Shown here piece by piece: positions 11,442 to 33,113 of a stretch of DNA of 64,000 nt (positions within the stretch are counted from its first letter, which is position 1; every line of letters starts with the position of its first letter). Made by a program: the position numbers and the translations under genes. This DNA is from Bryobacteraceae bacterium (GTDB lineage Bacteria > Acidobacteriota > Terriglobia > Bryobacterales > Bryobacteraceae). Location of the stretch: contig JBJMGJ010000380.1 of the NCBI GenBank assembly GCA_045807965.1, positions 2,218 through 66,217 of the forward strand, given 5' to 3'. The notes beneath the pieces were generated by a model. That model saw only the letters and a list, made by a program, of their open reading frames with translations. It was not told the DNA's origin and made no database searches.

Positions 11442-11492
11442 GGCTTTTCCTTTCAGAGTGGGTCTTCATTATATGCCATGTAATCCTCGCGA
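11442..11492 (-). promoter_or_regulatory. conserved promoter-like box + leader (copy 3)
   Basis: Minus strand TCGCGAGGATTACATGGCATATAATGAAGACCCACTCTGAAAGGAAAAGCC-ATG. Confidence 0.5.
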
Positions 11493-11497
11493 TCTTG

Positions 11498-11524
11498 AAA
11501 ACCATAACCCTTGTGGGGTTATGA
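11498..11524 (-). terminator. intrinsic terminator (hairpin family)
   Basis: aaaa + ccataaccc-ttgtg-gggttatg. Confidence 0.7.
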
Positions 11525-11533
11525 TTTGTTGAC

Positions 11534-12151: not shown

Positions 12152-12430
12152 CTTAATCCTTTCAGTAGTGGGAAGAAATGGCGTCCGCCGGGCGGGGACT
12201 TCGGCAACTAGACTCCCTTTAGGAGAGTTCAGTCCCCGAAGCCCCCTACCCGGCGTTCGTCTTCACTCGACGACGCGCTCTTCCAGTGCGCGCGGTTGGC
12301 ATTTGGCTGGAGAGTCCAAAATGCCTCCGGACTTTTCAGTCCACGAGCAGGTTTTTTAACTGCCTAGCCCGAAATGAAGCGTCCTCCACTCGGACCGCTC
12401 GGTGTTTTCCTTCACCGCGGCTTGTGTTCA
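12152..12430 (-). other. 279-bp non-coding region made of consecutive stem-loops (candidate structured RNA)
   Basis: Nested hairpin 12186..12255 (cgccggg/cccggcg enclosing ggggact/agtcccc enclosing ctcc/ggag). Further stems at 12274..12292, 12298..12325, 12329..12342 and 12395..12420. No ORF longer than about 19 codons on the minus strand. Confidence 0.4.
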
Positions 12431-15604: not shown

Positions 15605-16150
15605 TTACTCGTCGACGACATCTTCCGGTTTCACCGAATCCAGCCCGTCCTGCAGACCCATCGAGATCTGCTGACCGGAAATGATCATTCCTTTACTGCC
15701 ACCGGCTTCCGGTTCCTTCTCGATCGGCAGATTCGGTTGGGGCGGACCGAATATCGGAATAACACCGTAGATCGGACCATGCTGGACCGTTTCACCCGGC
15801 CAGATCTTCAGCTTGGCTTCACCGATGACGTTCGACTTTCCGTGGACGTCGTAGACAGTGATAGGTACCGGAGTTTCGAGATTCACCGGCAGATCGACTC
15901 GTTCACCTCGCCAGTGCGCTCGAGACCGAATCGTCGCGTTGAACGCTTCAAGCATACTGCTCAGAAACGAGGCAAGAATGAAATCCGGTGTACCGGAATC
16001 GTTCTCCATGCTGTGATAATTGAGCAGAGATTCCAGAGCCTGTTCGAAAGTGGGCTCGACATCATCGGTACGAGGCTTGGTCATACCGGCATTCTGCGCA
16101 GCCTCATGCTGTAAACCAGCCTTCTGATAGCGGGAGAACGGATCAGGCAT
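15605..16150 (-). CDS. hypothetical protein, 181 aa
   Basis: Track ORF. Confidence 0.6.
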   Translation of the reverse strand: MPDPFSRYQKAGLQHEAAQNAGMTKPRTDDVEPTFEQALESLLNYHSMENDSGTPDFILASFLSSMLEAFNATIRSRAHWRGERVDLPVNLETPVPITVYDVHGKSNVIGEAKLKIWPGETVQHGPIYGVIPIFGPPQPNLPIEKEPEAGGSKGMIISGQQISMGLQDGLDSVKPEDVVDE

Positions 16151-16292
16151 TGTTATTCTTCTCCTTGTCCTTCTTCCGATATGGATTCTTCTTCGGTTTT
16201 CCGACAGCAGCTTGGGAAAATCCGGCCCGAAATCCTTCTTCCCAAGCTTCTTCTCGAAGTTTACGGAGGAATTCTAAAGCCTCGTCAGGCAT
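16143..16292 (-). CDS. basic-tailed microprotein, 49 aa
   Basis: Hand translation MPDEALEFLRKLREEAWEEGFRAGFSQAAVGKPKKNPYRKKDKEKNNNA. Confidence 0.4.
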   Translation of the reverse strand: MPDEALEFLRKLREEAWEEGFRAGFSQAAVGKPKKNPYRKKDKEKNNNA

Positions 16293-16315: not shown

Positions 16316-16389
16316 TCGAGGGCGCTGGAGTGCCAGTCGTTTAAGTTACGCGCCAATACACGGGGGGATATCTCCGCGCAGCCCCTCGA
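16316..16389 (-). repeat. structured intergenic element, copy A (core GTCGTTTAAGT)
   Basis: Outer stem tcgaggg (16316..16322) / ccctcga (16383..16389). Inner ctgg-agtg-ccag. The core is shared with 26626..26678 and 26899..26971. Confidence 0.5.
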
Positions 16390-16395
16390 AGATTG

Positions 16396-16599
16396 TCAAT
16401 CCATCGATGCATGCCACTGCTCATGACGTTGGATCACATCGAACGGTGTCGCCGGATCAATCATCACCGAGACACCACAGAGTGTGCAGGTCATGAATCC
16501 GACTCGAGCACCCTCGGCTGGCACAGCACGTGCTCCGGGTATCCAATGTTCTTCGGGCGGATGGTTCTCAGGTTGTGCTGGATGGCGGTGGCGTGGCAT
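16396..16599 (-). CDS. hypothetical protein, 67 aa
   Basis: Track ORF. CTLCG..HEQWH. Overlaps the upstream gene by 32 nt. Confidence 0.4.
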   Translation of the reverse strand: MPRHRHPAQPENHPPEEHWIPGARAVPAEGARVGFMTCTLCGVSVMIDPATPFDVIQRHEQWHASMD

Positions 16600-16810
16600 C
16601 GCTCACACTCTCAACCGTACCGGAAGCGGGGAGGACGGAACCGTCATCGAGCGCGGAAGACACGTCCGTACCGATCGGTTCGCCATAGTCCACACTGAAG
16701 TTGATGTCACCAGCGATCCGCTCCGCTGCATTCCGGATCTGCACTGCCTTGTCACGTGGCACGTTCGAGAAGGTGAGCGTCATGTAGATGTTACCGCTGG
16801 ACTGGGTCAT
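16568..16810 (-). CDS. hypothetical protein, 80 aa
   Basis: ATG 16810 (MTQSSGN) behind AGGAGA, 12 nt after the replicase stop. Confidence 0.5.
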   Translation of the reverse strand: MTQSSGNIYMTLTFSNVPRDKAVQIRNAAERIAGDINFSVDYGEPIGTDVSSALDDGSVLPASGTVESVSDATPPPSSTT

Positions 16811-16821
16811 GCTGGGTTCTC

Positions 16822-19800
16822 CTATCCGTTGAGGAACTCTTCGAACGGTCCATAGTAGTCGATCGTGTTCCGAGCGATTTCCACGAGATTCTCGAAATAT
16901 CGCATGTCGATCTCGGCGTCCGATCCCATCGCTTCCACGACAGCGGCCTCCGCCCAGCGATAATCTTTCGTACCGGCGACGGCATAGAACTTGTCCTCGG
17001 CAACCCGCCATAACCGACCAGCAACCGCAGATGTCCCTGCTACCGGTACGAATATGCCGATCTTGCCGACGAATTGCATCTTCTCCTGGTCTCCGGGCTG
17101 AGGCTTGTCGATTCCGGTGAAGTCGAGATAGATAATGCCTTTACCTACCTGTTTGACCTCGCAGTAGTCGTCGAACCGAATATTGTCATCACTGAACAGC
17201 GTCTTGAATACGTAGGGATGCTGGAACTGCGCACCGACCGCGGTGTAGTGCGCGTCCTTACCCTTTCCTTCCCGGGCAATATAAACCGCGTCGTTGACCA
17301 AACAGAAAGCTTTGTAAGTCGCCTCGTGCTCGAACTCGTATCCGTACCTGGCGCCGAAGTCCATCACGAACTGAATGATCTCCGGTGTTGCCTCCGGAAT
17401 CTTGATCGAGTCGGTCTTGATGTGCGCGACTATGTAACCCTTCTGCTGTACCGCATTCTTCAGATCGATCATGAACAACGCGCCACGCTTGGCGACGATG
17501 TTGTCCTTGTTCTTCGGAATACGGAATGGATTGTCGAATTTGGCCGCAGTAAGACCATAGACCGTATTGATCACGATCTTCAGAGCATAGGCGAGATCTT
17601 TCGCCTGACTCTCGTTCTTCAGATAAGGAGCGAGTTTGCCGCCAAGCATTCGTCGCGCCTCTTCAAAATTTCCTCGCTTGATGGCGACGCGAGCATCGAG
17701 TAGAGCGACGAAGTTTGGCGTGTACTCGCCGAAGGCGTTGAGTTCCTTGATGCTAGTCGGATGCATTGACGCAACGTCCAGTACAGCAACGTCGAAATAC
17801 ATTCCTTCGTCAGCGTAGACATAACCACTTTCACCGACCTCTTCGCCACGATATGTGCTCTTGCCCATCTCGAACTCATACCCAGGGAACATCTGCGACA
17901 GATCGGTGTAGACGAACGAGAGTTTGGCATCCCGATCGTTGCCGAATATGATTCTCGCAGTGTGCTTCGCGGTGGAATCGTTCACCGTGAGTCCGGATAA
18001 CGCAGCCAGGATCTGTCTGGCTACGAAATCCTGCTCGCGGTCAACGAAGGTCAATTCGGTACCGATAACGTCGTTGACACAGTACTCGACGACCTTGTCC
18101 CAGAGCTCCTCGGGAACCGGCTTGTCCCAGGGAATATCCATCTCGACCTTACGAATCCCGAGCTGGATCATGAACCGCTTCAGACTCTGCTTGACCGAGC
18201 TGAAGTCATAAATATCCGCGTACGACAAATTGTATGCTTCACCGAACATGGCGCCGCTGTTACCAGCAATTATCTTTTGGCTCAGCGCGTACAACGCAGC
18301 GTTGTCATAACCCATGTACGCTGCATAGAGAATATGATTGTCGTACCTACGGTTGTTGAAGCCGACAAGCTTCATGTGCAGCAGTTTTTCGATCTCCTGT
18401 GCCGGAGGATTGACCATCCGAACGACCGCGGTGTTCACTCCTTCGTATTTCCAGCAGACGACGAAGAGATTGGGATATACTTCGACATCGAAGAAGACCA
18501 ACCGTCGGTCATCGTTGTCGTCCAGCTTCTCCTGCACACCCGGAACCGGATCGTCGAGATGATCTGGAATATCCGAACTCTTGAATTTCATCTGCTGAAC
18601 CTGCTTGATGCAGTACATGGCGTGATTCGTCGAGCCGGTAGCGAACGCAAATATCTGCGACCGCAGATCGGTGACATCGTAGGACATACCGCTCTCGAAC
18701 GCTTCATCCAAGATCTTCTTGATGAAGTCGACCGACGGTTTGGTACCTGGGAGAATTTCTCGACGAAGGTTGCGTGCGATCAGGCTGCGTAGGCCTTTCT
18801 CGCTCTTGATGGTATCAGCTCCCAGCATCTTCTTCTCCTTGATAGGTAACGTGTTGATCATCGTTGCGATGGGCACGTTGTTACACTTGGACAACCGACG
18901 GCGTAAGGACGAACCCCCCGTAAAGGCCTTGACCTCAACACCCTCAGAATACTCTGGCTTGAGAATAGTGACATCGCCGTCATAATTGTAGTGGAGATGA
19001 ATTCCACTGCCGGACTTGCTGATCTCTGCGTAGGTAGGAGGCCATGCAGAGGCCGCCTCGAGGTTTCGCTCGAGAGATTTGTTTCCATCGTCGTCCTTGA
19101 GGTCGAAGTCAATCACAATATGCTGATCAGGGACCTTGACGAAGTGGACTTTACTCGTATCGATGTCAGACAAAATCGTCGTGACAGTTGACCAGGACTT
19201 CTTCGGTGTGCCATTGGGTGTGGCGTACTGAGCAGGATATCCGGCAAAGTCATCATCGAAGAGCGAGTGGGTCTCCTCCATCACAAGCGAGAACGTCTGT
19301 ACATTCTTACTGGGTGCCTTGTACTTGTTGGCATTGAAACCACAATAATAACTACGCACGATCTCCCCGTCCACCTCAACTCGTTCTTTGAATCCGTCGA
19401 AGTAGTTCCGTAACTCCTCGCGGAATTTGTACTGAGGTAACGGTCGATCGATGCCACTTTCGGCACACCATTCTTTGTACATGGTGTACGCCTGTTTCAG
19501 ACTGGTGCCGTCTTGCGCCTTGAATATGTCATACGTGGCTTCGATGAAGTTGAAGAACACGTCGGTTTGGAGCATCATCTCGGTCGGACGATATGAGCTG
19601 TAGTAATTCTTACCCAGCTTGCGATAGACGCCCAGACAGTGATGTGCTATCGCGCCTAATTCGAAGTCGATTCTTGCCAACAACGCATCATAATGCTTCC
19701 GCGGAATCGTAACTCCGGTAGGATGCACATCGATCAACCGTCGGATGATACCCGACTTCGCATCAGATATCTTGACCGGTTGATTGGTACCCATGAACAG

Positions 19801-20595
19801 AAACGCATTCACCCGGGAAGTGTAACCGGGTTTGTACTTCTCGTTCATCGGCATGTCTTCGTGCGCAACGATCGAGTTGATCCGGGTATTGTCCTCGATC
19901 TTGCTCAAGTCTCCGTCATGTTGCACGGCAACCAACGGATTGTTCTTGAACGCTTCCGTAGCGAAGGTGCCATTGCTAGACCCTAACGCTTTGGCATCGA
20001 AGGTGGTTGTGTATCCTTCGAACAGCTTGAGGATGATGTTTAGAATCGTCCCCTTGCCCGAGCCAGGAAGGCCGTAGAAAACCAGGAACTTTTGAATCTT
20101 CTTGGCATCACCGGAGATTATTGCTCCGATAGCCCATTCGATTTTCTCTTGTTCCTCTACGGAGTACAGCGTTCCCACGAGTTCGTCCCAAGCGCTGTGA
20201 TCGCCTGGTTCGAGCGCATACGGCAGTCTGCGACTCACGTAGTCGGTCTTGCGGATATCCTGGTTGGCGAAGGTGAGGTTTTCATCCAGCTGGTGATAGC
20301 TGTCGGGCAGGTTGGCTACATGTTGCTGAAAACTAGCCCACATCCGATTGCTACCATTACGGAGATACTTGACGGTTACGCCGCCGTTCTTCTCCGCATA
20401 TAGGCGCAGGTCCTCGTCGACGAGTCGTTGTACGTCGTACTCGTCCGTGGACCACAGACCTCTCGATTCATCCCAGATAGCATAAACGGAATGGCCACGG
20501 ATCATGATGTCCTCGAAGCGTCCGACCAGAAAATCGGGAAACGCTTCTAGTTTGCCACCCTTTGTCTCTCTGGTTGAAATTACGTAGAAGTCCAC
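16822..20595 (-). CDS. fusion replicase: D5/P4-type SF3 helicase + AEP primase + family B DNA polymerase, 1257 aa
   Basis: Walker A GLPGSGKGT (residues 175-183). AEP motifs VIDFDLKDDDG and SGSGIHLHY (about 494-536). Exo motifs FFDVEV, NNRRYD, YCVNDV. PolB motif A DVASMHPTS, motif B KIVINTVYG, motif C HIKTDSI. Confidence 0.85.
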   Translation of the reverse strand: MDFYVISTRETKGGKLEAFPDFLVGRFEDIMIRGHSVYAIWDESRGLWSTDEYDVQRLVDEDLRLYAEKNGGVTVKYLRNGSNRMWASFQQHVANLPDSYHQLDENLTFANQDIRKTDYVSRRLPYALEPGDHSAWDELVGTLYSVEEQEKIEWAIGAIISGDAKKIQKFLVFYGLPGSGKGTILNIILKLFEGYTTTFDAKALGSSNGTFATEAFKNNPLVAVQHDGDLSKIEDNTRINSIVAHEDMPMNEKYKPGYTSRVNAFLFMGTNQPVKISDAKSGIIRRLIDVHPTGVTIPRKHYDALLARIDFELGAIAHHCLGVYRKLGKNYYSSYRPTEMMLQTDVFFNFIEATYDIFKAQDGTSLKQAYTMYKEWCAESGIDRPLPQYKFREELRNYFDGFKERVEVDGEIVRSYYCGFNANKYKAPSKNVQTFSLVMEETHSLFDDDFAGYPAQYATPNGTPKKSWSTVTTILSDIDTSKVHFVKVPDQHIVIDFDLKDDDGNKSLERNLEAASAWPPTYAEISKSGSGIHLHYNYDGDVTILKPEYSEGVEVKAFTGGSSLRRRLSKCNNVPIATMINTLPIKEKKMLGADTIKSEKGLRSLIARNLRREILPGTKPSVDFIKKILDEAFESGMSYDVTDLRSQIFAFATGSTNHAMYCIKQVQQMKFKSSDIPDHLDDPVPGVQEKLDDNDDRRLVFFDVEVYPNLFVVCWKYEGVNTAVVRMVNPPAQEIEKLLHMKLVGFNNRRYDNHILYAAYMGYDNAALYALSQKIIAGNSGAMFGEAYNLSYADIYDFSSVKQSLKRFMIQLGIRKVEMDIPWDKPVPEELWDKVVEYCVNDVIGTELTFVDREQDFVARQILAALSGLTVNDSTAKHTARIIFGNDRDAKLSFVYTDLSQMFPGYEFEMGKSTYRGEEVGESGYVYADEGMYFDVAVLDVASMHPTSIKELNAFGEYTPNFVALLDARVAIKRGNFEEARRMLGGKLAPYLKNESQAKDLAYALKIVINTVYGLTAAKFDNPFRIPKNKDNIVAKRGALFMIDLKNAVQQKGYIVAHIKTDSIKIPEATPEIIQFVMDFGARYGYEFEHEATYKAFCLVNDAVYIAREGKGKDAHYTAVGAQFQHPYVFKTLFSDDNIRFDDYCEVKQVGKGIIYLDFTGIDKPQPGDQEKMQFVGKIGIFVPVAGTSAVAGRLWRVAEDKFYAVAGTKDYRWAEAAVVEAMGSDAEIDMRYFENLVEIARNTIDYYGPFEEFLNG

Positions 20596-20607
20596 GCACC
20601 CTCCCCC

Positions 20608-21129
20608 CTAGCCCTCCAGAAGATATGCACTCATTTGGTACCAGATCTCGACATTTCTCTGGTCCTTGCGTGCATATCTTAGCGGAAACAGCCCTCCACG
20701 GCCGTTTCGATCGTAGGTTCGCCAAATGACGGTGTTGATTCGTTCATCTACCTCATCATGGTCGTATTGTGATCGGTCGGTGCAGTTCTGCAACCCGAGA
20801 TTTTTGATGAGATGCCAGAACCAGGTCTCGGCGTGGCCCTCAGCTTCGAAGGCCAAGCGCCGAGACAAGGCAACGAGCATCTCGAGAAAAGAACAGCCGC
20901 GGGCCAGCCACGTAGGATCCGGAAATATCCTACTTTCCGTAGCCCATTCGTGACGTAGCCCGCGGCCGTCCTCTACTCGGTTGTCGTCGTTTGGAACCAG
21001 CCAGATGAATTCGATTTCGTACATCTGATGGAACAGGTTCCAGTACGTGCGGGACCGGTTGCGTTCCTTGACGTCACCGACCTGGCTGTACAACCAGGAC
21101 AGGTACAGATCGTCAAGGGATTCGGTCAC
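20608..21129 (-). CDS. hypothetical protein, 173 aa
   Basis: Track ORF with GTGA overlap upstream. Confidence 0.6.
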   Translation of the reverse strand: MTESLDDLYLSWLYSQVGDVKERNRSRTYWNLFHQMYEIEFIWLVPNDDNRVEDGRGLRHEWATESRIFPDPTWLARGCSFLEMLVALSRRLAFEAEGHAETWFWHLIKNLGLQNCTDRSQYDHDEVDERINTVIWRTYDRNGRGGLFPLRYARKDQRNVEIWYQMSAYLLEG

Positions 21130-22160
21130 TCATCATCCCTCCACCTCGCCTTCCTGAGGCGCGGGGTGGAGTCCGAATGACGAAGCCCCATCACCTCTTC
21201 CGAGAATCTGCCGGTGCTGCGACCGACCTCGTAGTCAGCCTTGAGCCGGGCATTGCGGATATAGACGATGTTCGGATCTCGGGAACCGTGTCCGAATCGA
21301 GTTAGGTTGTCGCTGCCCACGATCGGATCGACTTCTTGGATCATCTCGTCGTTCTCGTCGGCGAGAATATCGTCACCCTCGTAGTACGTGAGACTCGTCT
21401 GAGTGTATTCGTCAACATTCTCGACGAACTCCTCGAACGCGATAACGTATGGTAGACCGGCATCACGTCGGGCTCCTTCCGCCTCGGCATCCCAGTCATC
21501 CTCGACGAGCGGCTTTCCGTCGACGAAGATGTTACGTTCCTGTGTTGCCTCGACGGTGACGGGATGATCTCGAATTTCCTCTTTCGCCTGAGCGTTGGTC
21601 ACGACCTTGTCGTACCGGCGTTGGTTCTTCTCGACAGGAACGTCCGTACGCTCCTCGGACTGTAGCTTCTCCTCGGGCTCTTCGCCGGAGTACTTCGTAT
21701 GAGCATCCGCTGCTTCCTCGATCAGCTTCTCGGCTGCGGTTCGAGGCGTGGAATACTTCCCATCCTTGTACCGACGAATATAGAACTGGCGCATCTCCTC
21801 GAGCTCTCGATCTTGTCGCTCTTCGAACTCCTTCTCGAGGCGCTTCTTCTGCCACTTGTAGGCCATGACGCCCAGTGCAGCTCCGGCAACTACACCACTG
21901 ATACCCAATATCACGAGCATCGTATTCGGGTTACGGAACACCTGAACACCTCGGCGAGTGACATCTGCAGTGACGTGCACGCTCCTGTCGAGCGCCTCCG
22001 GCACCACATCAGCCACCTTCTCCAGCCCGGACTCGAGGACCTCGGTGGCCTTGTCCGCACCGGAAACGACCGCGTCGATCGCGTTTTCGACCACCTCCAC
22101 ATCCTTGTCGATCTCCGTCAGCACTGGACGGATCGCTTCGATTTGAGCTCGCTTAGCCAT
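21126..22160 (-). CDS. single-pass membrane protein with charged linker and conserved-looking C-domain, 344 aa
   Basis: TM segment MLVILGISGVVAGAALGVMAY. Glu/Lys-rich middle region. Confidence 0.6.
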   Translation of the reverse strand: MAKRAQIEAIRPVLTEIDKDVEVVENAIDAVVSGADKATEVLESGLEKVADVVPEALDRSVHVTADVTRRGVQVFRNPNTMLVILGISGVVAGAALGVMAYKWQKKRLEKEFEERQDRELEEMRQFYIRRYKDGKYSTPRTAAEKLIEEAADAHTKYSGEEPEEKLQSEERTDVPVEKNQRRYDKVVTNAQAKEEIRDHPVTVEATQERNIFVDGKPLVEDDWDAEAEGARRDAGLPYVIAFEEFVENVDEYTQTSLTYYEGDDILADENDEMIQEVDPIVGSDNLTRFGHGSRDPNIVYIRNARLKADYEVGRSTGRFSEEVMGLRHSDSTPRLRKARWRDDE

Positions 22161-22171
22161 AGTGAATATCC

Positions 22172-22495
22172 TCAGACATCCGGGTTCGGGTTGGTCTTGA
22201 CGGTGTAGTCTGCTGGCTGATTAGGTGCGTCGGTTGAAACCTTCTCGAATTCGAGCCAGCCGTTGCTCTTGTTGGCCAGATAGATGCCCACGCCCACTCC
22301 GGCTGCGAAGATCAGCAACCGATGCTTCTTCGGCAGCTTGACGACGATCTGATTCGAGCGTTTGCCGATCTCACCCACGTGGCCTTCGAGGTGTGCGAAC
22401 CGACGTTGGACGCTTTCCGCGTGCCGAACCATCAAGTTCAGAACCTCGACGACTTCCTTTTCGAAAGGAGTGCTGGGCATGATTGTGTTGTTCAT
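22172..22495 (-). CDS. membrane protein, 107 aa
   Basis: SD AAGGAG. TM segment LLIFAAGVGVGIYLA. Confidence 0.55.
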   Translation of the reverse strand: MNNTIMPSTPFEKEVVEVLNLMVRHAESVQRRFAHLEGHVGEIGKRSNQIVVKLPKKHRLLIFAAGVGVGIYLANKSNGWLEFEKVSTDAPNQPADYTVKTNPNPDV

Positions 22496-22533
22496 AACGA
22501 ATCTCCTTCTAGGATATAGTGGGTGACGCAGAG

Positions 22534-23448
22534 TCAGATCAGGTGGTAAACCGTACCGTCCACGTTGAAATCGAGCCAGATGGATCCTTCTTCACCGTTC
22601 ATGAAGTCGTGTACTTCGCGAGAGTTCTCATCCAGCCCGAAAGAGACGTAACCGTCCCCGCCGGTCTTCCTGGTGTCCTTCACCCAACCGACGACACAGC
22701 CTTCCTTCGTCCGCTCCATGCCGAGCGAATCGTAGACGTCGTTCAGCAACAGATATCCGTATGCCCGCAGCCGATCATTTGCCCAAGTCTGCTGGACCTG
22801 GATGAACGTCCGGTTGTCGAGCGGGTGATTGGACCAGTGCCTGTTCAGCTGATCGAACGGACGAGCGTAACCAGACATGCCCTTCGCAGCGATGCGCTTG
22901 ACCGTCTTTACCTCGTGGCCGTGCTCGTCCTCCTCGATGATCTCCTTGAGCTTATATCCGTAGCGGAACTCACGGTCCTTGTCCTCGCCGAGTTCATCAC
23001 GGACCCGCTCCCGGTACTCCTTGAAGGCCCGATCGACCACCGCGTACGCCGCAGCCAGACTGGCATTCCGCTTGGTCAGCACCACGTGTGAACCGGTCAG
23101 CAGAGCGATCGACACGAAACCCAGTCCGACCGCAGGTGCATAGAGCTTGGTGAGATCCCGAGCGAGGTGGATCTTTACCAGCCGCTGGTCGCTCTGCCAC
23201 TTCTCGACGGTGTACTGGGCCGGGCGCTCGTCATGCACTGCATCCAGTCCAACGCGGGTCTTCTCGGCCTCCTGCAGGATTTCCTCGACCTGCAGTGTGG
23301 CCTTGCACGCCAGAACCGTCGCGGTCACTGCCGTGGCGATACCAGCTCCGAACAGCATGGCCGGAGAATGCTTCCGGGCCAGCAGAGCTTGCCGAGCCAC
23401 CGCTACGGTGACTGTATTTGGAATGAACTTCACGATATGTCCTTTCAT
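22534..23448 (-). CDS. two-TM protein, paralog family member 1, 304 aa
   Basis: TM helices followed by RLRAYGYLLLNDVYDSLGMERTKEGCVVGW. Homologous to 27006..27845 and 28366..28692. Confidence 0.65.
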   Translation of the reverse strand: MKGHIVKFIPNTVTVAVARQALLARKHSPAMLFGAGIATAVTATVLACKATLQVEEILQEAEKTRVGLDAVHDERPAQYTVEKWQSDQRLVKIHLARDLTKLYAPAVGLGFVSIALLTGSHVVLTKRNASLAAAYAVVDRAFKEYRERVRDELGEDKDREFRYGYKLKEIIEEDEHGHEVKTVKRIAAKGMSGYARPFDQLNRHWSNHPLDNRTFIQVQQTWANDRLRAYGYLLLNDVYDSLGMERTKEGCVVGWVKDTRKTGGDGYVSFGLDENSREVHDFMNGEEGSIWLDFNVDGTVYHLI

Positions 23449-23588
23449 TTGACCTTGCCCTGCTCCTTGAGGCGCAGGTAGATGGCTGAGATCTGGGCAG
23501 ACGACATCTTCCTTACTCGCTGCTCCCAGGCATCGCTAGGATATACAGCTAGAAGCGCCTCTTTTTGTTTGATTGCAGGGTTTTCCAA
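23445..23588 (-). CDS. microprotein, 47 aa
   Basis: TTG 23588 sits 1 nt after the upstream stop, behind GGAG. The track ORF 23445..23711 would overlap 23590..24249 by 122 nt. Confidence 0.35.
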   Translation of the reverse strand: MENPAIKQKEALLAVYPSDAWEQRVRKMSSAQISAIYLRLKEQGKVK

Positions 23589-23589
23589 C

Positions 23590-24249
23590 TCACCGCTCCA
23601 ACGGTTCTGGTGGGGGAAGATTGAGCAGATATCCTTGCCGAATATGCTCGATACGAGATCCGCGCAAGTCGGTCCAACCATAACGGAAGTCGGTGAAATT
23701 GGCGGATTCACCTATCAACTCGTACAGATCCGAAACGGCAACCTGCTCGTACCGTTCGAGAATGGCAAATAACCCATCGAGGACCATCTCGGCTTCGGGT
23801 CGTGATTCGAGAATGATCTCTTCGAAGTTGTGAGCACCACGTGATCGTCGACTCACCGATTCCCGGGGGTCATCCCGTAACGATCGAACCGGTGATTGCG
23901 AAAAACCACGATAGTCGACCCGTCCAGGCAGACCAACAACCCGACCGTTCATCCTTCGATGCGATGCTCGAGATTCGCCGAGCACCAGTCGTTCGACACC
24001 ACCGTTGACCACATCGATGATCAGATCGCGGAAGTTGGGAAGGACGATGTCTTCCAGCAGATACTCTCGAACGCTTATCGCATCACCTCCGATGAATGCT
24101 TCTTTCAGTCGTCTGCTGAACGGCCGCTTACGTCGAACGACTTCACCATGGACGACTCGCTCGATGTTCTTGGTTTCGGGCTGTGGTTCTGGTCCGTCCC
24201 GAGATGGTCCCCTTCTTGATCGATCACTGTTACCAGGAAATTCATCCAT
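23590..24249 (-). CDS. hypothetical protein, 219 aa
   Basis: ATG 24249 (MDEFPGN) behind CATGAGGATTATC. Confidence 0.6.
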   Translation of the reverse strand: MDEFPGNSDRSRRGPSRDGPEPQPETKNIERVVHGEVVRRKRPFSRRLKEAFIGGDAISVREYLLEDIVLPNFRDLIIDVVNGGVERLVLGESRASHRRMNGRVVGLPGRVDYRGFSQSPVRSLRDDPRESVSRRSRGAHNFEEIILESRPEAEMVLDGLFAILERYEQVAVSDLYELIGESANFTDFRYGWTDLRGSRIEHIRQGYLLNLPPPEPLER

Positions 24250-24273
24250 GATAATCCTCATGTAGGAAAAATG

Positions 24274-24302
24274 AAAAAACCATAACCCTTGTGGGGTTAT
24301 GG
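24274..24302 (-). terminator. intrinsic terminator (hairpin family)
   Basis: aaaaaa + ccataaccc-ttgtg-gggttatgg. Confidence 0.75.
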
Positions 24303-24313
24303 TCTTGAACGGT

Positions 24314-24574
24314 CTAGCTCTCGGGGTCGGACTTTTTCTTCAGCGAAGCGGCGAGGTCAGCCAGTTCGTCGATCTGCTTGTCAACGTACCCATGCGTCGC
24401 GTCCGCCACGATCTCGCCCACAACGTGCGCTCCGATGAACGTACTTGCTGATTGCAAGCGCGTCTCCGGATCGACGTTCTGGTTGATGACAGTGACGACC
24501 ATGATGCTGGTGGCACGAGCGACAATGAATCGACTCACGGTCTTGACTCCTGCACGCGTGATGCGGAGGCTCAT
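24314..24574 (-). CDS. small protein, 86 aa
   Basis: ATG 24574 (MSLRITRAG) behind the leader. Hydrophobic FIVARATSIMVVTVI. Confidence 0.55.
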   Translation of the reverse strand: MSLRITRAGVKTVSRFIVARATSIMVVTVINQNVDPETRLQSASTFIGAHVVGEIVADATHGYVDKQIDELADLAASLKKKSDPES

Positions 24575-24627
24575 AGTCTTGGTCCTTTCGATAGAGGGGT
24601 TCATTATGAGCCGTGTAGGACTCGCGA
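24575..24627 (-). promoter_or_regulatory. conserved promoter-like box + leader (copy 5)
   Basis: Minus strand TCGCGAGTCCTACACGGCTCATAATGAACCCCTCTATCGAAAGGACCAAGACT-ATG. Confidence 0.5.
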
Positions 24628-24644
24628 CCCGCTCTTCTCCGAAC

Positions 24645-24914
24645 CTAGGCAACCTGCTTGCTTGCCTCTGCTGCTGCGGTCAAGCAGTTCTTCCACAGCT
24701 CAGACTGCGCTGCATCGAATGCGTAGACCGTGAGACCTGCCGCTTGCATGCTTTCGAGCCAGAGGTTGACCGCTTCCTGGGCATTGACCACATTCATGAT
24801 GATCTTGGGCTGCTTGAAGACGAATCGAGTAGCGACCACACCGACGGTGAAGCCGAGTGCGTACATGAAATATAGCTCTCGGTTCTCGTTGACCTTACGG
24901 ATGAGGCTGTTCAT
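24645..24914 (-). CDS. small membrane protein, 89 aa
   Basis: ATG 24914 (MNSLIRK) behind GAAGGAG. TM segment LYFMYALGFTVGVVATRFVF. Confidence 0.5.
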   Translation of the reverse strand: MNSLIRKVNENRELYFMYALGFTVGVVATRFVFKQPKIIMNVVNAQEAVNLWLESMQAAGLTVYAFDAAQSELWKNCLTAAAEASKQVA

Positions 24915-25033
24915 GATAACTCCTTCGAATATGGACGGACGGATAAAGCGAGAAGACTCGTAGCGTGCACGAAGCACTTCCCATAACGGTTTAACTACGA
25001 GTCTCCTCATCATGAACCTTGTAAAACGCGCGA
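24915..25033 (-). promoter_or_regulatory. promoter-like box (copy 6) with an unusually long structured leader
   Basis: Box TCGCGCGTTTTACAAGGTTCATGATGAGGAG at about 25005..25033. The leader holds a 10-bp stem gagactcgta/tacgagtctt. Confidence 0.4.
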
Positions 25034-25098
25034 GGTGGGGGCCAGCAATAGCCAGTCCGCGACACTGACTATGAGACCCCTCTCAACCGGCCCCCACC
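25034..25098 (-). terminator. GC-clamp hairpin, putative terminator
   Basis: ggtgggggcc (25034..25043) pairs with ggcccccacc (25089..25098) around a 45-nt loop. Lies between the stop of 25110..25856 and box 6. Confidence 0.4.
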
Positions 25099-25109
25099 CC
25101 TGCGTTGGT

Positions 25110-25856
25110 TCAGTCGAAGGCCTTGGCGGCCTTCATCTTCATGGCGAGCTGCATCTCCTCGGAGCCCATCCGCATGAGCTCCTGCTTGGTCGGGTACCGA
25201 GTCTCCCGCAGCCAGGCCGGTTCGTCGTCCTTACCCGACAGAGCAGGCACCGGCGTCACCTCAGAAATGACACCCTGGAACTCCGGCGGCGTCGGATGCA
25301 CTGAAGGATCTGCCTGGACTGCCTGCTCGAACTGTGGCTGCGGTTTCTCGGCCTGGGTCTGAGCATCACCCAGAACACCGGAAATATCATCCGGAGTGTA
25401 TCCGGCCTTCTGCATGACCTCGGTCTTCTCCTCGGTCGTGAGGTCAGGCAGTTCGGCGACCGTGATGCCCTTCTCCTGCAGCGCCTTCTGCAGTTCGCCC
25501 TGGATGTTCGCTGGGAAGATCCCAGTGAGCACCGAAGCGCCTGAGTCGGACGAGGTCATGATGTCCATGAAGAACGCGTCGTAGGCTCCCGACTGCAGGA
25601 AATAGTCCGTGATCTCCTGGCTCTTCACGAACCGCATGCCCTCACGACGTCCGACGGCATCACCCAGGATTTTCTCGAACTCCTTGATGATGACAGCACC
25701 GTCCCGCTCGACGGTGAGACCTTCGAGTCGTTTACCATAATCCTCGCCCTCGACGACTGCCTTCTTGGCGATCTCGGAAGCGGTGATCTGGAACCAGAAC
25801 TCCTCGGTGACGGTCTCACCGTCGATATTGATGAACGTGATAGCCTTTTTGAGCAT
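25110..25856 (-). CDS. hypothetical acidic protein, 248 aa
   Basis: Track ORF. SD GAGGAA. Confidence 0.6.
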   Translation of the reverse strand: MLKKAITFINIDGETVTEEFWFQITASEIAKKAVVEGEDYGKRLEGLTVERDGAVIIKEFEKILGDAVGRREGMRFVKSQEITDYFLQSGAYDAFFMDIMTSSDSGASVLTGIFPANIQGELQKALQEKGITVAELPDLTTEEKTEVMQKAGYTPDDISGVLGDAQTQAEKPQPQFEQAVQADPSVHPTPPEFQGVISEVTPVPALSGKDDEPAWLRETRYPTKQELMRMGSEEMQLAMKMKAAKAFD

Positions 25857-25859
25857 GTA

Positions 25860-26021
25860 CTAGTTCCTCACGGTGTCGAAGTTGCTGTCGTAATGCGCGA
25901 TGCAGTCAGGGCAGACTTGAGATCCGTCCAGCGTTTCCGTAAGGTCCTCTTCTCGAGTTCCCTTGTGGCACCAGTCACATGTGGTCAAGCAGAGTTCATC
26001 CCCCGGCTGCAGTAGAGTCAT
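25860..26021 (-). CDS. zinc-ribbon microprotein, 53 aa
   Basis: Hand translation MTLLQPGDELCLTTCDWCHKGTREEDLTETLDGSQVCPDCIAHYDSNFDTVRN. Confidence 0.45.
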   Translation of the reverse strand: MTLLQPGDELCLTTCDWCHKGTREEDLTETLDGSQVCPDCIAHYDSNFDTVRN

Positions 26022-26025
26022 GGCA

Positions 26026-26136
26026 CTAACTCTGCCTGCGAAGCCGGTTGCCCACCAGGATCAGGATGATGCTGAGGGCAGCCAGGACGGACATCACGAT
26101 CGAGGTGTGCTGACGGGGAAGAGTAATGAACGACAT
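26026..26136 (-). CDS. membrane microprotein, 36 aa
   Basis: ATG 26136 behind AAGGAGA: MSFITLPRQHTSIVMSVLAALSIILILVGNRLRRQS. Confidence 0.4.
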   Translation of the reverse strand: MSFITLPRQHTSIVMSVLAALSIILILVGNRLRRQS

Positions 26137-26174
26137 CTTCTTAGTCTCCTTCGTTTGATGCGATTTGCGTGGAT

Positions 26175-26381
26175 TTACTTGTGGTTGTCGAAGGTCGTAT
26201 TCATCGTGCGAACCATCGGATGTAGCCAAGCGGGGGGCTGATTCAATTCTTCCTTATAAGTCCATCCTTTTTTCAACAGATCGACGATGCAAGCCCTGGA
26301 CAAACCAGTGACTCGATGAAGATGATCCACCTGTTTAGTTGTAATCGCAGGAATATCGGGATCAGGAGGTAGAACTGTCAC
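26175..26381 (-). CDS. small HTH-like protein, 68 aa
   Basis: GTG 26381 behind AGGAGAG. ITTKQVDHLHRVTGLSRACIVDLLKKG. The start could instead be the upstream GTG (L-V-P-A-Q). Confidence 0.4.
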   Translation of the reverse strand: MTVLPPDPDIPAITTKQVDHLHRVTGLSRACIVDLLKKGWTYKEELNQPPAWLHPMVRTMNTTFDNHK

Positions 26382-26448
26382 GGGAATCTCTCCTGTTTTT
26401 ATGAAATGCTCGAATGCCTTGTACTGGGCAGGCACAAGCAGCTCTCTT

Positions 26449-26595
26449 CTATCGGATATAAGAGTTACGTGTACGTGCAGCGACACGCCGAAAGTTTTCG
26501 GTGCTGAGGACGTCGTTGAGCTTGTTGGCGACAACAGGCATGATGATCGGCGAAGCGAAGACACCAATGGCGAAACCCATGGTGAACTTGAACAT
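26449..26595 (-). CDS. membrane microprotein, 48 aa
   Basis: ATG 26595: MFKFTMGFAIGVFASPIIMPVVANKLNDVL... Confidence 0.4.
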   Translation of the reverse strand: MFKFTMGFAIGVFASPIIMPVVANKLNDVLSTENFRRVAARTRNSYIR

Positions 26596-26625
26596 CTGAG
26601 ATATCCTTTCGAGAGAATATAGCTG

Positions 26626-26678
26626 GGGGGCACCATTTGGTCGTTTAAGCTTCGCAGTTCCCCTCTGCGAAAGCCCCC
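26626..26678 (-). repeat. structured intergenic element, copy C (core GGTCGTTTAAGCT)
   Basis: Outer stem gggggc/gccccc, inner ttcgcag-ttcccct-ctgcgaa. Followed on the minus strand by TATATT about 20 nt before ATG 26595. Confidence 0.5.
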
Positions 26679-26690
26679 ACTGGAATATGA

Positions 26691-26870
26691 TCAGCCCTTC
26701 GGACAACCGTAGATACGGTTGTGCTTCAGGACGCAGACGTTGGACCTGGGGTCTCCGTAGATCTTGCAGCCGAACAAGCAGTCGCTCATGCCCACTTCCC
26801 GGAACCGGCTGGCGACCTCGGGGTCTGGGTGTAGCGGTTCGCTCGGACCAGCGACGTAGGTGATCTGCAT
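26691..26870 (-). CDS. Cys-rich microprotein, 59 aa
   Basis: Hand translation MQITYVAGPSEPLHPDPEVASRFREVGMSDCLFGCKIYGDPRSNVCVLKHNRIYGCPKG. SD AAAGGAG. Confidence 0.45.
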   Translation of the reverse strand: MQITYVAGPSEPLHPDPEVASRFREVGMSDCLFGCKIYGDPRSNVCVLKHNRIYGCPKG

Positions 26871-26898
26871 GGTGCTCCTTTCTTTTGAAGATATAAAG

Positions 26899-26971
26899 TT
26901 GAGGGGCGCCGAATTTGGTTCTATTGGCGGTGGTCGTTTAAGCTACGCCGACTACAGCGCAGCCCCCTCAA
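26899..26971 (-). repeat. structured intergenic element, copy B (core GGTCGTTTAAGCT)
   Basis: Perfect 8-bp outer stem ttgagggg (26899..26906) / cccctcaa (26964..26971), inner ggcg/cgcc around the core. Followed on the minus strand by TATATC about 19 nt before ATG 26870. Confidence 0.5.
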
Positions 26972-27005
26972 ATATCATGACAGCAGCCCTAGGATTCCGC
27001 GGAGG

Positions 27006-27845
27006 TCAGTGAGTTCCGCCGAATCCCTTGTGGTAGTCCTTGATGATTCCCGGGCGATTGTAATACTCCATGACGAAGCAGGGCTTGGTTCCGCCGTCGG
27101 CCACCGTTGTCGTGAAGTTCAGCTCCATCGGACTTTCGATCGTCCAGCCTACTTCACTGGAGAACTGAGTACGTGCCAGTCCGATCTCGTCGTAGAAATC
27201 GGACAGACTCACGTACATGTCGTCGATCATCCGATGGTTCAACCGAGCTTCCGCCATCTTGACCAGATGCATCTTGCTCCGGAAGTACCGGCCGGTCCAG
27301 GCTTCCAGGAACAGCACCTCATCCTCACCCGCCAGGACCTGAATATCGTCCGATGGCGGATTGTTGTGGAATCGATCCTGATTCAGCTCGTCCCGAATCT
27401 CTTGTTCCTTCTTGATCCCGAGCTTCTCGGTCACCTTGTCGCGATACTCGTCGAACTGCTTCTCGCTGACCTTGTACGCGGCAGCCAGTCCAGCGAGCCG
27501 AGTAGCACTGATGCTGTTCGCGGTCAGGATGCAGCCTACGGTTCCGACCAGCATGAGCGCTGGCGGAATATACTCCTTCCAGACCAACTTGATCTTCTCT
27601 TTGGTCTCGAGCGGATGCCCCTTCTCCATGAAGTCCTGGTTGGTCTGCTCCGCGGCGATGATCGTCGCGGCCTTGAAGGTGGCCTTACCGGTCAGATAGG
27701 CGGTCATCGCAGCGCCGGTCACGGCGAACGCCGAGATGATCGTCGGTGAATTGTCGATGGCGTACTTTTCCGCCACCTTGAGTAAGCTACGAAGCGTCAC
27801 GATGTAAATCCTCTTCCTGATAATCGTAAAGCGGGGTTTCGACAT
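27006..27845 (-). CDS. two-TM protein, paralog family member 2, up to 279 aa
   Basis: LAGLAAAYKVSEKQFDEYRDKV and YVSLSDFYDEIGLARTQFSSEVGW align with 22534..23448. The real start may be GTG 27800. Confidence 0.6.
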   Translation of the reverse strand: MSKPRFTIIRKRIYIVTLRSLLKVAEKYAIDNSPTIISAFAVTGAAMTAYLTGKATFKAATIIAAEQTNQDFMEKGHPLETKEKIKLVWKEYIPPALMLVGTVGCILTANSISATRLAGLAAAYKVSEKQFDEYRDKVTEKLGIKKEQEIRDELNQDRFHNNPPSDDIQVLAGEDEVLFLEAWTGRYFRSKMHLVKMAEARLNHRMIDDMYVSLSDFYDEIGLARTQFSSEVGWTIESPMELNFTTTVADGGTKPCFVMEYYNRPGIIKDYHKGFGGTH

Positions 27846-30687: not shown

Positions 30688-30692
30688 TGTCC

Positions 30693-30800
30693 TTACCCTT
30701 TCCAACCATTGAGCACGACAACAGTCAGCAATATCATTGCGATGAACCAGATAATGAGAACCGGAGTACCGATTCGTTCCAAGAGGTGCGGTCTGTCCAT
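30693..30800 (-). CDS. membrane microprotein, 35 aa
   Basis: Hand translation MDRPHLLERIGTPVLIIWFIAMILLTVVVLNGWKG. Confidence 0.4.
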   Translation of the reverse strand: MDRPHLLERIGTPVLIIWFIAMILLTVVVLNGWKG

Positions 30801-30827
30801 GAGGGGTCCTCTTCGAATGGGAAAAAC

Positions 30828-30859
30828 GAAAACCTAGAATCCGTGTTAGGGATTCTAGG
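30828..30859 (-). terminator. intrinsic terminator (hairpin family)
   Basis: aaaa + cctagaatcc-gtgttag-ggattctagg (10 bp). Confidence 0.75.
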
Positions 30860-30866
30860 CCTGAAG

Positions 30867-31127
30867 TCAGTTCTTCTTCTCGGGCTCGGGCTTGGGCTCG
30901 GTGGCCTCCGCCTTCAGCTCCTCGACGGCTTCCTTGCTGCGGTGGAACAGGGAGACGACGCGGGGCTTCAGGTAGTTGAACGCGACGAATCCGCCGATGA
31001 CAACAGCCGCGGTTGCGGTGCTGACCAGGGCGGTCGAGGCGAGCTCCTTCCCGAAGCCATTGGCTTCGTCCTCCAGAACCTCCGCGTCGGAAACGACGAG
31101 GTCGGTGGTGGTGGTTGCGGTGTCCAT
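30867..31127 (-). CDS. cassette gene: single-pass membrane protein, 86 aa
   Basis: TM segment LVSTATAAVVIGGFVAFNYL. Has its own box and terminator. Confidence 0.6.
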   Translation of the reverse strand: MDTATTTTDLVVSDAEVLEDEANGFGKELASTALVSTATAAVVIGGFVAFNYLKPRVVSLFHRSKEAVEELKAEATEPKPEPEKKN

Positions 31128-31642: not shown

Positions 31643-31695
31643 GGTGGCTCCTTGGTTGAGGGTCTTCTTCATTAGAAGCCATGTTGATCTTGCGA
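31643..31695 (-). promoter_or_regulatory. conserved promoter-like box + leader (copy 8)
   Basis: Minus strand TCGCAAGATCAACATGGCTTCTAATGAAGAAGACCCTCAACCAAGGAGCCACC-ATG. Confidence 0.5.
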
Positions 31696-31696
31696 G

Positions 31697-31723
31697 AAAA
31701 CCAGAATCCTTGTGGGATCCTGG
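31697..31723 (-). terminator. intrinsic terminator (hairpin family)
   Basis: aaaa + ccagaatcc-ttgtg-ggatcctgg. Confidence 0.7.
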
Positions 31724-31731
31724 TTGTTGAA

Positions 31732-32635: not shown

Positions 32636-32830
32636 TCAGTGATTGAACGCTTCTTGGAGCAGGGCCTTGGCTCGGGTGAATTCCTCGTCGGTGAATCGGG
32701 GCTGCTGCACGGCCGGACAACGCTTGCGGTTTCGCCTGCTCTCGATCGATTGAGTGATCTCGAGCGACTTGACGGCGGCGGTCGGGCCTGCAACTGCCCA
32801 GATGGCGATTGCGAGGAGGTTCTTCTTCAT
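32636..32830 (-). CDS. cassette gene: signal-peptide or TM protein, 64 aa
   Basis: MKKNLLAIAIWAVAGPTAAV at the N-terminus. Confidence 0.6.
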   Translation of the reverse strand: MKKNLLAIAIWAVAGPTAAVKSLEITQSIESRRNRKRCPAVQQPRFTDEEFTRAKALLQEAFNH

Positions 32831-32913: not shown

Positions 32914-32940
32914 TCTTGATCGAACTGATGGATCGGACCG

Positions 32941-33107: not shown

Positions 33108-33113
33108 TGAGGC

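Follow-up and report, generated by a model that had tools for sequence, protein, structure and literature searches.

A family of autonomous structured RNAs from tailed phages built on a three-way junction with an invariant joining strand

HK022 put, the RNA of processive antitermination, consists of two adjacent stem-loops with a single-base joint and no closing terminal helix, and is not known outside HK022-like coliphages. Self-cleaving ribozymes found in phages include hammerhead, twister, pistol, hatchet and the HDV-like theta ribozymes near phage tRNAs; in the hammerhead, the junctions are 7, 3 and 1 nt long. The xrRNAs of eukaryotic viruses such as flaviviruses have a ring-forming pseudoknot and act as structural barrier that defines a stable RNA end. 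T4-type phages carry PeSL cassettes, and nucleotides 1051–1108 of E. coli 23S rRNA, which we take to be the GTPase-associated centre with the L11-binding domain (H42-H44), read GCCAGG...CAUUUAAAGAAAGCG...ACUGGU.

Here we describe a phage element that resembles each of these systems in part. It is a three-way junction of helices P1, P2 and P3, in which an invariant strand, UUAAACGA, leads to P3. Like putL and putR, the element is a phage-encoded structured RNA of ~70 nt that acts in cis on the transcribed strand, has a few copies per genome, needs no phage protein and is promoter-proximal in one lineage. However, its consensus is a junction closed by P1 rather than two open stem-loops, it occurs in phages of several phyla and is mostly not promoter-proximal, and identity with put was rejected on grounds of architecture. 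With phage ribozymes it has in common the junction-centred core, the free helices, a similar size and a sporadic, multi-copy, tandem or gene-flanking distribution near tRNAs, but its junctions measure 0, 8 and 1–2 nt and differ in sequence from those of the hammerhead, and no ribozyme model in Rfam matches it even at E <= 10. In the L11-binding domain, the closing helix likewise runs straight into the first hairpin, a UUAAA-containing strand leads to the second, and almost no linker returns to the closing helix. However, the rRNA relies on conserved hairpin loops (A1067, A1095), conservation is absent from the loops of P2 and P3, and the covariance model scores nothing at E. coli rrlH 1051–1108; the resemblance is one of fold only and a mimic of this junction was discarded. 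PeSL cassettes and the terminator-promoter cassettes of the DNA studied here are also repeated intergenic modules that border small-gene cassettes, may be missing at orthologous positions and are often joined to a promoter, but they are near-identical hairpin-plus-promoter repeats of one genome, whereas the element covaries, has an invariant junction and is common to unrelated phages. Flavivirus xrRNAs, finally, share the three-way junction with conserved joining sequence, the position just past a stop codon and the frequent tandem arrangement, but no pseudoknot is evident in the element.

The stretch of DNA that we analysed (the window, 64 kb) is actinophage-like and carries all its genes on the minus strand. 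The original prediction had placed three structured copies at 16316–16389, 26626–26678 and 26899–26971, and sequence read-out, pattern counts and covariance models all agree with this. Two covariance models detected exactly these three copies, in RNA sense, and no fourth. Pattern GTCGTTTAAGYT has exactly three matches on the plus strand (16336–16347, 26640–26651 and 26933–26944), and the minus-strand 17-mer GCGWARCTTAAACGACY matches exactly at the same sites; a fourth match to GTCGTTTAAGYT, with one mismatch, at 47991, lies within coding sequence and lacks structure, and four or more matches were obtained in 0 of 100 shuffles. All outer stems quoted previously (ttgagggg/cccctcaa, tcgaggg/ccctcga, gggggc/gccccc) and all inner stems (ttcgcag/ctgcgaa, ggcg/cgcc, ctgg/ccag) were found in the sequence. 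Folding of the minus-strand RNA gave one common three-helix shape for copies A, B and C, with the following features:

16316–16389, minus strand: copy A, whole element, 74 nt (fold; covariance models, 56.3 and 51.5 bits)
16383–16389 with 16316–16322, minus strand: P1 of copy A, UCGAGGG/CCCUCGA
16345–16382, minus strand: P2 of copy A
16337–16344, minus strand: invariant junction strand UUAAACGA of copy A
16324–16337, minus strand: P3 of copy A, CUGG/CCAG
26626–26678, minus strand: copy B, whole element, 53 nt, minimal form (covariance models, 36.6 and 43.3 bits; left out of the seed alignment of the models)
26674–26678 with 26626–26630, minus strand: P1 of copy B, GGGG(G)/CCCC(C)
26649–26674, minus strand: P2 of copy B, UUCGCAG/CUGCGAA
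26641–26648, minus strand: invariant junction strand UUAAACGA of copy B
26632–26641, minus strand: P3 of copy B, ACC/GGU
26691–26870, minus strand: 59-aa Cys-rich gene (phrog_25998), situated between copies C and B
26899–26971, minus strand: copy C, whole element, 73 nt (covariance models, 58.6 and 56.5 bits)
26964–26971 with 26899–26906, minus strand: P1 of copy C, UUGAGGGG/CCCCUCAA
26942–26963, minus strand: P2 of copy C
26934–26941, minus strand: invariant junction strand UUAAACGA (J2/3) of copy C
26908–26934, minus strand: P3 of copy C

The fold of copy C has an energy of -32.8 kcal/mol (z = -4.05). Copy A starts 6 nt past the TGA of a 67-aa ORF (16396–16599) and ends 23 nt ahead of the ATG of a 49-aa ORF (16143–16292). 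Copy C starts 34 nt past the stop codon of a DUF6353 gene (27006–27845) and ends 28 nt ahead of the ATG of the 59-aa gene; copy B starts 12 nt past the stop codon of the latter and is followed by the Shine-Dalgarno (SD) sequence GAAAGGA and a 48-aa membrane-like ORF whose ATG is at 26595. The order DUF6353 gene, element, 59-aa gene, element is kept in the metagenomic relatives L183 and L237. A further GC-rich three-way structure of the window (25011–25109) was considered as degenerate copy and dismissed, as neither covariance model gave it a score.

Pattern scans and the covariance model recovered 62 distinct copies from contigs of unrelated phages and metagenomes, and the element is further carried by ~55 cultured Gordonia phages (e.g. 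Schwartz33 and Kenosha), the Rhodococcus phages ReqiPepy6 and ReqiPoco6 and a few prophages. The carriers are phages of several bacterial phyla, and an all-against-all ORF comparison of the viral loci revealed no phage protein partner shared outside lineages. Of the 64 matches returned by a scan of genome contigs, most are fortuitous and fall in 16S rRNA, dxs, carboxyltransferase or further coding DNA; those that look real are confined to L041, L049 (identical to L020), L064 and L069, and the element is thus essentially phage-restricted. The region of copies B and C gave no blastn match to isolated phages. None of the 4227 models of Rfam 15, among them those for hammerhead, twister, pistol, hatchet and HDV-like ribozymes, tRNA, riboswitches and phage motifs, matched the window at gathering threshold or positions 26560–27020 at E <= 10, and only tRNAs were reported in 27 element-bearing loci at gathering and permissive thresholds. 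The core sequence retrieved only primers and chance strings from the searchable literature, which also held nothing relevant on phage RNA motifs, new ribozymes or RNAs of tRNA clusters. The element is previously undescribed in Rfam 15 and the searchable literature, although a survey of 10,006 candidates from IMG/VR may list it unnamed.

In 5' to 3' direction, the consensus comprises the 5' strand of P1, P2, the UUAAACGA junction, P3, a return of one or two bases, (Y)G, and the 3' strand of P1. In all members, the top of the closing helix P1 consists of three G-C pairs (GGG/CCC). P2 is joined to P1 without a linker and begins with an invariant G-C pair, while the first pair of P3, behind the junction, is an invariant C-G. 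Because neither the length nor the loop sequence of P2 and P3 is constrained, the junction is regarded as the functional core. Members are 45–125 nt long, with a minimal size of 45–50 nt. The core had been predicted to be single-stranded, which applies to the unpaired conserved strand UUAAACG(A); however, its first C is paired as the terminal base of P2, and P3 begins with the final AC. Similarly, the outer stem does covary between copies as proposed, but GGGG on its 5' side and G(Y)GCCC on its 3' side are conserved. UUAAACGA is invariant in 66 out of 66 aligned family members. Since the first members were collected with a pattern that fixes the core, this invariance rests mainly on ~15 copies chosen by the model without any sequence pattern, in which the junction and its flanking pairs are invariant as well.

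Among the 62 distinct sequences, 84.3% of the helix cells are paired. Cells changed on both sides numbered 231 as compared to 86 in shuffles, none of 500 shuffles reached the observed value, and the covariation score was 0.462 versus at most 0.111 for slid registers. The larger alignment and the covariation statistics thus uphold the idea that the element is structured and encoded in cis, its junction strand being conserved and its stems covarying. The original prediction was to be given up if the core were missing in relatives or the stems failed to covary; the core is in fact present in relatives and far beyond and the stems covary, so this test fails to refute it.

Within the helices, G.U combinations numbered 68 and A.C combinations 23, which indicates that the element functions at the level of RNA made from the gene strand; its orientation is always that of the flanking genes and tRNAs. 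The element is a family of autonomous structured RNAs from tailed phages, transcribed on the gene strand. The same bias speaks against two roles that had been proposed, i.e. a second class of promoter whose operator is structured, and a DNA site used by a phage enzyme. As to the former, the distance from the core to a -10-like hexamer is not fixed: the TATAT(C/T) reported behind copies B and C is there, but it lies 18 nt from the core in copy B versus 37 nt in copy C and is no fixed-spacing feature of the family, and the promoter scan called none of these sites as sigma-70-type promoter. The element also resides in phages without proteins common to the window phage.

Three further identities were rejected. 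A canonical intrinsic terminator was discarded because a scan called none of the three window copies as minus-strand terminator and a strong U-tract follows only 4 of the 62 copies. The element is no tRNA or tRNA-like gene, as the window contains no tRNA and ARAGORN and Rfam never called the element as tRNA in tRNA-bearing loci. Finally, a riboswitch is incompatible with the unrelated neighbours (capsid, terminase, endolysin, small unknown proteins and tRNAs) and with the SD, which lies 5–25 nt beyond P1 and does not overlap it, as an expression platform would.

The element is modular and not tied to one genomic position. Most copies are situated after the end of a gene and before an SD or promoter, and in 33 of 62 copies an SD and start codon follow within 50 nt. 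Upstream neighbours comprise genes for major head, head-morphogenesis, terminase and endolysin proteins as well as early genes. In the actinophage group, many copies directly precede the group's promoter, while the genes behind copies B and C are preceded by an SD but no promoter. The copy number ranges from one to a few per genome, and every copy lies on the transcribed strand. The window (C/B) as well as L176, L183, L192, L220, L237, L241 and L244 have pairs of copies arranged in tandem or on either side of a gene. Hexamers resembling -10 boxes are enriched 0–7 nt upstream, no more than in the AT-rich spacer downstream, and are too close to P1 to allow its transcription. A full upstream promoter is present in one lineage only (L008), where TTGACA-17-TATGCT ends 6 nt before P1, placing the element at the transcription start. 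In four independent lineages a tRNA follows on the same strand after 3–12 nt, which requires RNase P to cut immediately after the element in these cases; between the transcription start and this cut, the L008 lineage has essentially nothing but the element. The tandem pair of L220 stands behind a TATAAT hexamer and ahead of an untranslated tRNA operon, and in L203 the element is located inside an array of 8 tRNAs.

From anatomy and context we tentatively favour, with less than even confidence, a role as self-folding module for RNA punctuation or processing, the products being RNA ends capped by hairpins or a small stable RNA. The element would fold unaided within polycistronic or tRNA-operon transcripts and separate neighbouring RNA units. 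Cleavage at or beside the junction would be performed by host RNases or by the element itself, RNase P being the certain cutter where a tRNA stands 3–12 nt downstream. After the cut, the 3' end of the upstream RNA would be a stable hairpin, and a hairpin would also head the downstream RNA; alternatively, the whole element could be released as small stable RNA with paired ends. The minor groove of P1 at its conserved GGG/CCC probably accommodates the three junction adenines; this would make the element a family-C three-way junction and would explain the invariance of both junction and GGG/CCC. However, the protection of RNA ends would require no more than simple GC hairpins, and ~20 invariant bases argue for a more specific activity, either catalysis or binding of a conserved partner. 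Moreover, punctuation does not need the first-transcribed position seen in the L008 lineage, which fits better to an effect of the nascent RNA on RNA polymerase or to a small RNA gene.

Such an effect is at the heart of put-like processive antitermination, in which the nascent three-way junction would bind host RNA polymerase to resist intrinsic and Rho-dependent terminators downstream; we consider this possible but unlikely. As universally conserved partner, RNA polymerase would explain the occurrence of the core across bacterial phyla without any shared phage protein. The promoter-proximal position in the L008 tRNA lineage, the tandem copies of L220, the low copy number, invariably on the transcribed strand, and the canonical terminator-promoter cassettes, with which the window and its relatives are packed downstream of the copies, are consistent with it. 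However, the architecture departs from put, most copies are not promoter-proximal and many lie immediately upstream of a promoter instead, two copies 220 nt apart around one small gene would be redundant, and a few copies are themselves followed by a U-tract.

Improbable, though in keeping with a hammerhead-like design of three free helices around ~20 invariant junction bases and a minimum of 45–50 nt, is a new class of small self-cleaving ribozyme. Here, UUAAACGA would be the catalytic strand with which phages of several phyla cut polycistronic and tRNA-operon transcripts into hairpin-capped units. The sporadic, phage-restricted and multi-copy distribution, in tandem, bracketing genes or beside tRNAs, would suit such a candidate, as would, unlike in riboswitches, the lack of gene-specific association and expression platform. 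Against this stand the absence of matches to known ribozyme models, a cleavage site that cannot be inferred, the lack of an obvious benefit of self-cleavage where transcription starts or where RNase P cuts immediately downstream, and the low prior for any new class.

We are similarly doubtful about a trans-acting small stable RNA that, once released, would serve as decoy or sponge by binding a conserved host factor or small molecule through its junction. The gene-like setting in tRNA arrays (within the array of L203; with its own promoter in the L008 lineage) and the paired 5' and 3' ends point in this direction. The element also sits after highly expressed genes, and multi-copy or tandem arrangements would raise dosage. 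However, it comes without an identified partner, most copies have neither promoter nor terminator of their own, and with unconserved loops the junction alone is left for recognition.

An unusual branched intrinsic terminator is very improbable. It is true that the element fills the slot of the terminator hairpin in cassettes of related phages, where L163 has a plain hairpin, GAGGGGG...GUGCCCCCUC, and that at least 5 U occur in the 8 nt after P1 in 11 of 62 copies. However, the 4 copies with strong U-tract (at least 6 U in these 8 nt) include none of the window, the genes after copies B and C would lack a promoter, the element stands between promoter and tRNA in the L008 lineage, and terminators do not need an invariant 8-nt junction. 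Equally remote is a DNA-level element, i.e. a MITE-like mobile insertion or a phage DNA-enzyme site, promoter or operator: presence varies at orthologous sites, the P1 arms resemble terminal inverted repeats, direct repeats in the flanks slightly exceed the control (4.10 vs 3.81 +/- 0.13; ReqiPepy6 has the 9-nt repeat ATATTTGAG) and -10-like hexamers are frequent just upstream, but arms and inner stems covary instead of being near-identical among copies, the G.U over A.C bias is strand-specific, the hexamers are neither commoner than in AT-rich intergenic DNA downstream nor far enough from P1, and no transposase or other common protein is shared.

The combination of ~20 invariant bases, clean covariation and spread over unrelated phages is the signature of an RNA with a precise job, whether it catalyses a reaction or binds something universal, for example RNA polymerase, an RNase or a metabolite. 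Any of these readings, if true, would give phage gene expression a new RNA tool, be it ribozyme, RNA-only antiterminator, decay barrier or small RNA, with possible use as insulator part in synthetic biology. Function is directly testable because dozens of cultured, easily handled Gordonia phages from SEA-PHAGES as well as Rhodococcus phage ReqiPepy6 carry the element, and the covariance model enables annotators to mark a so far unannotated feature of many phage genomes.

The optional nature of the element can be followed behind a TAC_17-like gene, whose relatives were collected by an alignment-based search: it is present after this gene in ~13 of 80 relatives and absent or replaced in the rest. 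At the corresponding site of the window, another hairpin structure takes its place. The real terminators of the window belong to a different hairpin family.

The window holds a tailed-phage genome in which nearly every gene lies on the minus strand. The structural genes occupy 64 to 37 kb and the replication genes 27 to 16.8 kb, with small genes in runs elsewhere; the relatives of this phage among isolates are only distant actinophages (Gordonia, Arthrobacter, Streptomyces, Rhodococcus). The sequence read-out confirmed the three sites of the original prediction:

16316-16389, minus strand, copy A of the element
26626-26678, minus strand, copy B
26899-26971, minus strand, copy C

Exactly three exact matches to the 12-mer GTCGTTTAAGYT and the minus-strand 17-mer GCGWARCTTAAACGACY are present in the window, a count never attained in shuffles, and copies A, B and C share the same fold as minus-strand RNA. 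Across 62 distinct sequences, 84.3% of the cells are paired and 231 cells are changed on both sides, as compared to 86 in shuffles (0 of 500 shuffles attained the observed value). The covariation score was 0.462, while slid registers reached at most 0.111, and among helix pairs G.U (68) prevailed over A.C (23). The orientation is always that of the adjacent genes and tRNAs. Judged by these sequence comparisons, the element is an RNA structure on the transcribed strand rather than a duplex DNA site.

The element is real, and its description as a conserved core flanked by variable stems was essentially right. Comparison across members revealed a closing helix P1 of 5-14 bp, whose final three pairs are always GGG/CCC, and two inner hairpins, P2 (11 to ~90 nt) and P3 (8 to ~45 nt), both with unconserved loops; the smallest form comprises ~45-50 nt. 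The conserved strand between P2 and P3 had been taken for fully single-stranded, which does not hold, as its first C pairs with the G opening P2. This G follows P1, and P1 and P2 therefore lie on one continuous 5' strand. Unpaired are UUAAACG and an A opposite a pyrimidine, which is U in 29 sequences and C in 33. The first pair of P3 is an invariant C-G, and a single G (U in ReqiPepy6) links P3 to P1. UUAAACGA is identical in 66 of 66 hits. It is preceded by C, but U is possible, as seen in loci reached via the neighbouring gene and in one aligned copy; in loci reached this way, the first junction U is also replaceable by A. By established RNA structural rules, the adenine-rich strand, the invariant GGG/CCC of P1 and linkers of 0, 8 and 1-2 nt suggest A-minor docking in a putative family-C three-way junction. 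The L11-binding domain of 23S rRNA matches this topology and likewise contains a UUAAA strand (rRNA sequence verified), but is unscored by the element model; the likeness is a fold resemblance, not membership.

An enlarged form, in which P2 carries a conserved sub-domain (AAGG ... GGGGUC(U/C) ... CCGGAUGC), was observed in nine of the phage or metagenome loci (designated L): L097, L099, L101, L110, L117, L142, L220 (first copy), L095 (Schwartz33) and L096 (ReqiPepy6). This suggests an extra function or partner in that lineage.

A gapped pattern matched 26 viral contigs; in nearly all of them P1 is extended by additional pairs and P2 and P3 form proper hairpins. Applied to 596 Gb of bacterial genome sequence, the pattern gave 64 matches, mostly chance hits in rRNA or coding DNA, with approximately four prophage-like true members. 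This is sequence-level evidence that the element is phage-restricted, and pattern matches need caution. A 14-sequence covariance model recovered copies that no pattern had picked:

Gordonia phage Schwartz33, between genes 56 and 57 (41.9 bits)
the corresponding spot in ~55 cluster-DJ Gordonia phages and Rhodococcus phages ReqiPoco6 and ReqiPepy6
second and third copies within metagenome contigs
in metagenomic relatives, variants with a larger P2, 3' of a homologous gene

The family is large and phage-specific. For the element, Rfam 15 gave no match in the window or in 27 loci carrying it, with cutoffs as permissive as E <= 10, and ARAGORN did not call the element as tRNA. A literature search with the core sequence and keywords found no description, although a large viral candidate-RNA survey could list the element unnamed; as far as can be determined, the family is undescribed. 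Since cultured carriers exist, functional experiments are straightforward.

Copies start a few bases 3' of the stop codon of a same-strand gene. The genes in this upstream position are of unrelated kinds (major head protein, head morphogenesis, terminase large subunit, endolysin, DUF6353, TAC_17-like early gene). A Shine-Dalgarno sequence and start codon follow within 50 nt in 33 of 62 copies. Many actinophage-group copies run straight into the group promoter (T)TCGCA-N14-TATAAT, which in element-free relatives lies directly 3' of the gene; the genes 3' of copies B and C have no promoter. Copies often occur in tandem or in close pairs, and L183 and L237 repeat the window's order of DUF6353, copy C, small Cys-rich gene and copy B. 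The Cys-rich protein (phrog_25998; window 26691-26870; also in L183, L237 and L244; motif HPDP..VASRF.E..MS.C..GCKIY.DP.S.V.VL.H...YGC) adjoins the element in related phages and is sometimes duplicated.

In four independent lineages a tRNA begins 3-12 nt 3' of P1 on the same strand:

L008 group: tRNA-Asn
L027: tRNA-Thr
L203: tRNA-Cys within an 8-tRNA array
L220: tRNA-Asn, after a tandem pair of elements

We infer that this adjacency is far above chance, since the positions immediately 5' of tRNA genes make up a tiny share of a phage genome. The L008-group elements are preceded by a TTGACA-17-TATGCT promoter (extended -10) whose end lies 6 nt from P1, and the stretch from transcription start to the RNase P cut is approximately the element alone.

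The single requirement common to these contexts is transcription between RNA units, which argues for a self-contained RNA module. From sequence, we tentatively propose that the element may act in RNA punctuation or processing. The junction-centred fold would separate adjacent RNAs, with a cut next to or within the element. RNase P would make it at sites with a downstream tRNA, other RNases or the element itself at the remaining sites, and the products would be RNA ends capped by hairpins or a stable small RNA. Antitermination like that of HK022 put, as originally considered, appears less likely: it would account for the universal core, with RNA polymerase as partner, for tRNA loci with the element close to a promoter and for genomes rich in terminators, but copies immediately 5' of promoters and redundant paired copies fit poorly. 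The number of invariant bases and the distribution of the element would suit a new self-cleaving ribozyme, and the tRNA-array cases a trans-acting small RNA; we give both the same low probability. Terminator function and a DNA-level role are each very improbable, a strong U-tract following just 4 of 62 copies and the suggested promoter/operator failing on its unfixed spacing and strand-specific pairing signal.

A canonical terminator (no U-tract; no promoter for the genes 3' of copies B and C; the L008 copy lies between promoter and tRNA) and a riboswitch (neither gene association nor expression platform) were rejected, and a recent MITE is improbable (arms covary, flanking repeats barely exceed control). 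Some copies lie between short, AT-rich direct repeats (9-nt ATATTTGAG in ReqiPepy6; (C/T)ATATT on both sides of copy B), which could be an insertion trace or ordinary spacer sequence of the phage group:

L096 (ReqiPepy6), ~20000-20150
L095 (Schwartz33), 22905-23060
window, 26600-26700

Separate from the element, the window has an abundant family of canonical terminator-promoter cassettes:

7867-7907, 11470-11533, 24250-24313, 32794-32940, 33085-33151, minus strand
31683-31731, 34019-34072, 30688-30967, 33374-33493, 9495-9552, 8211-8329, further cassettes

The terminators fall into families of near-identical members, e.g. AAGACCAUAACCCCACAAGGGUUAUGGUUUUU and CUAGAAUCCC..GGAUUCUAGUUUU, in PeSL-like cassettes bracketing small genes. 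In every cassette the terminator is joined to a promoter-like sequence, (T)TCGCA-N14-(C/T)ATAAT, a motif also found in metagenomic relatives L098, L100, L141, L148 and L152. At 25011-25109 (minus strand), 3' of the TAC_17-like gene, a branched GC-rich fold (-52.9 kcal/mol) with UUUU behind it occupies the exact slot where relatives have the element; it lacks UUAAACGA, receives no score from the models and has a GAGAGGGGUCUC hairpin in common with the enlarged P2 seen in those relatives.

Window 12152-12430 (minus strand) is a 279-nt gene-free stretch with several long GC hairpins and a predicted fold of high stability (-128 kcal/mol), which could be a non-coding RNA or origin-like region. Another 371 nt without genes (2276-2646, minus strand) hold more hairpins besides a long, nearly perfect inverted repeat, UUUUCUGCCGUUUAUGAUCCCGUU ... 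AACGGGAUCAUAAAUGGCAGAAAA. In ReqiPepy6, GenBank annotates a 'tRNA-OTHER' amid small membrane-protein genes (L096 13309-13381, record 41206-41278). Window 61160-61520 is repetitive coding sequence with multiple offset tblastx matches to a collagen-like (G-x-y) repeat gene of L001.
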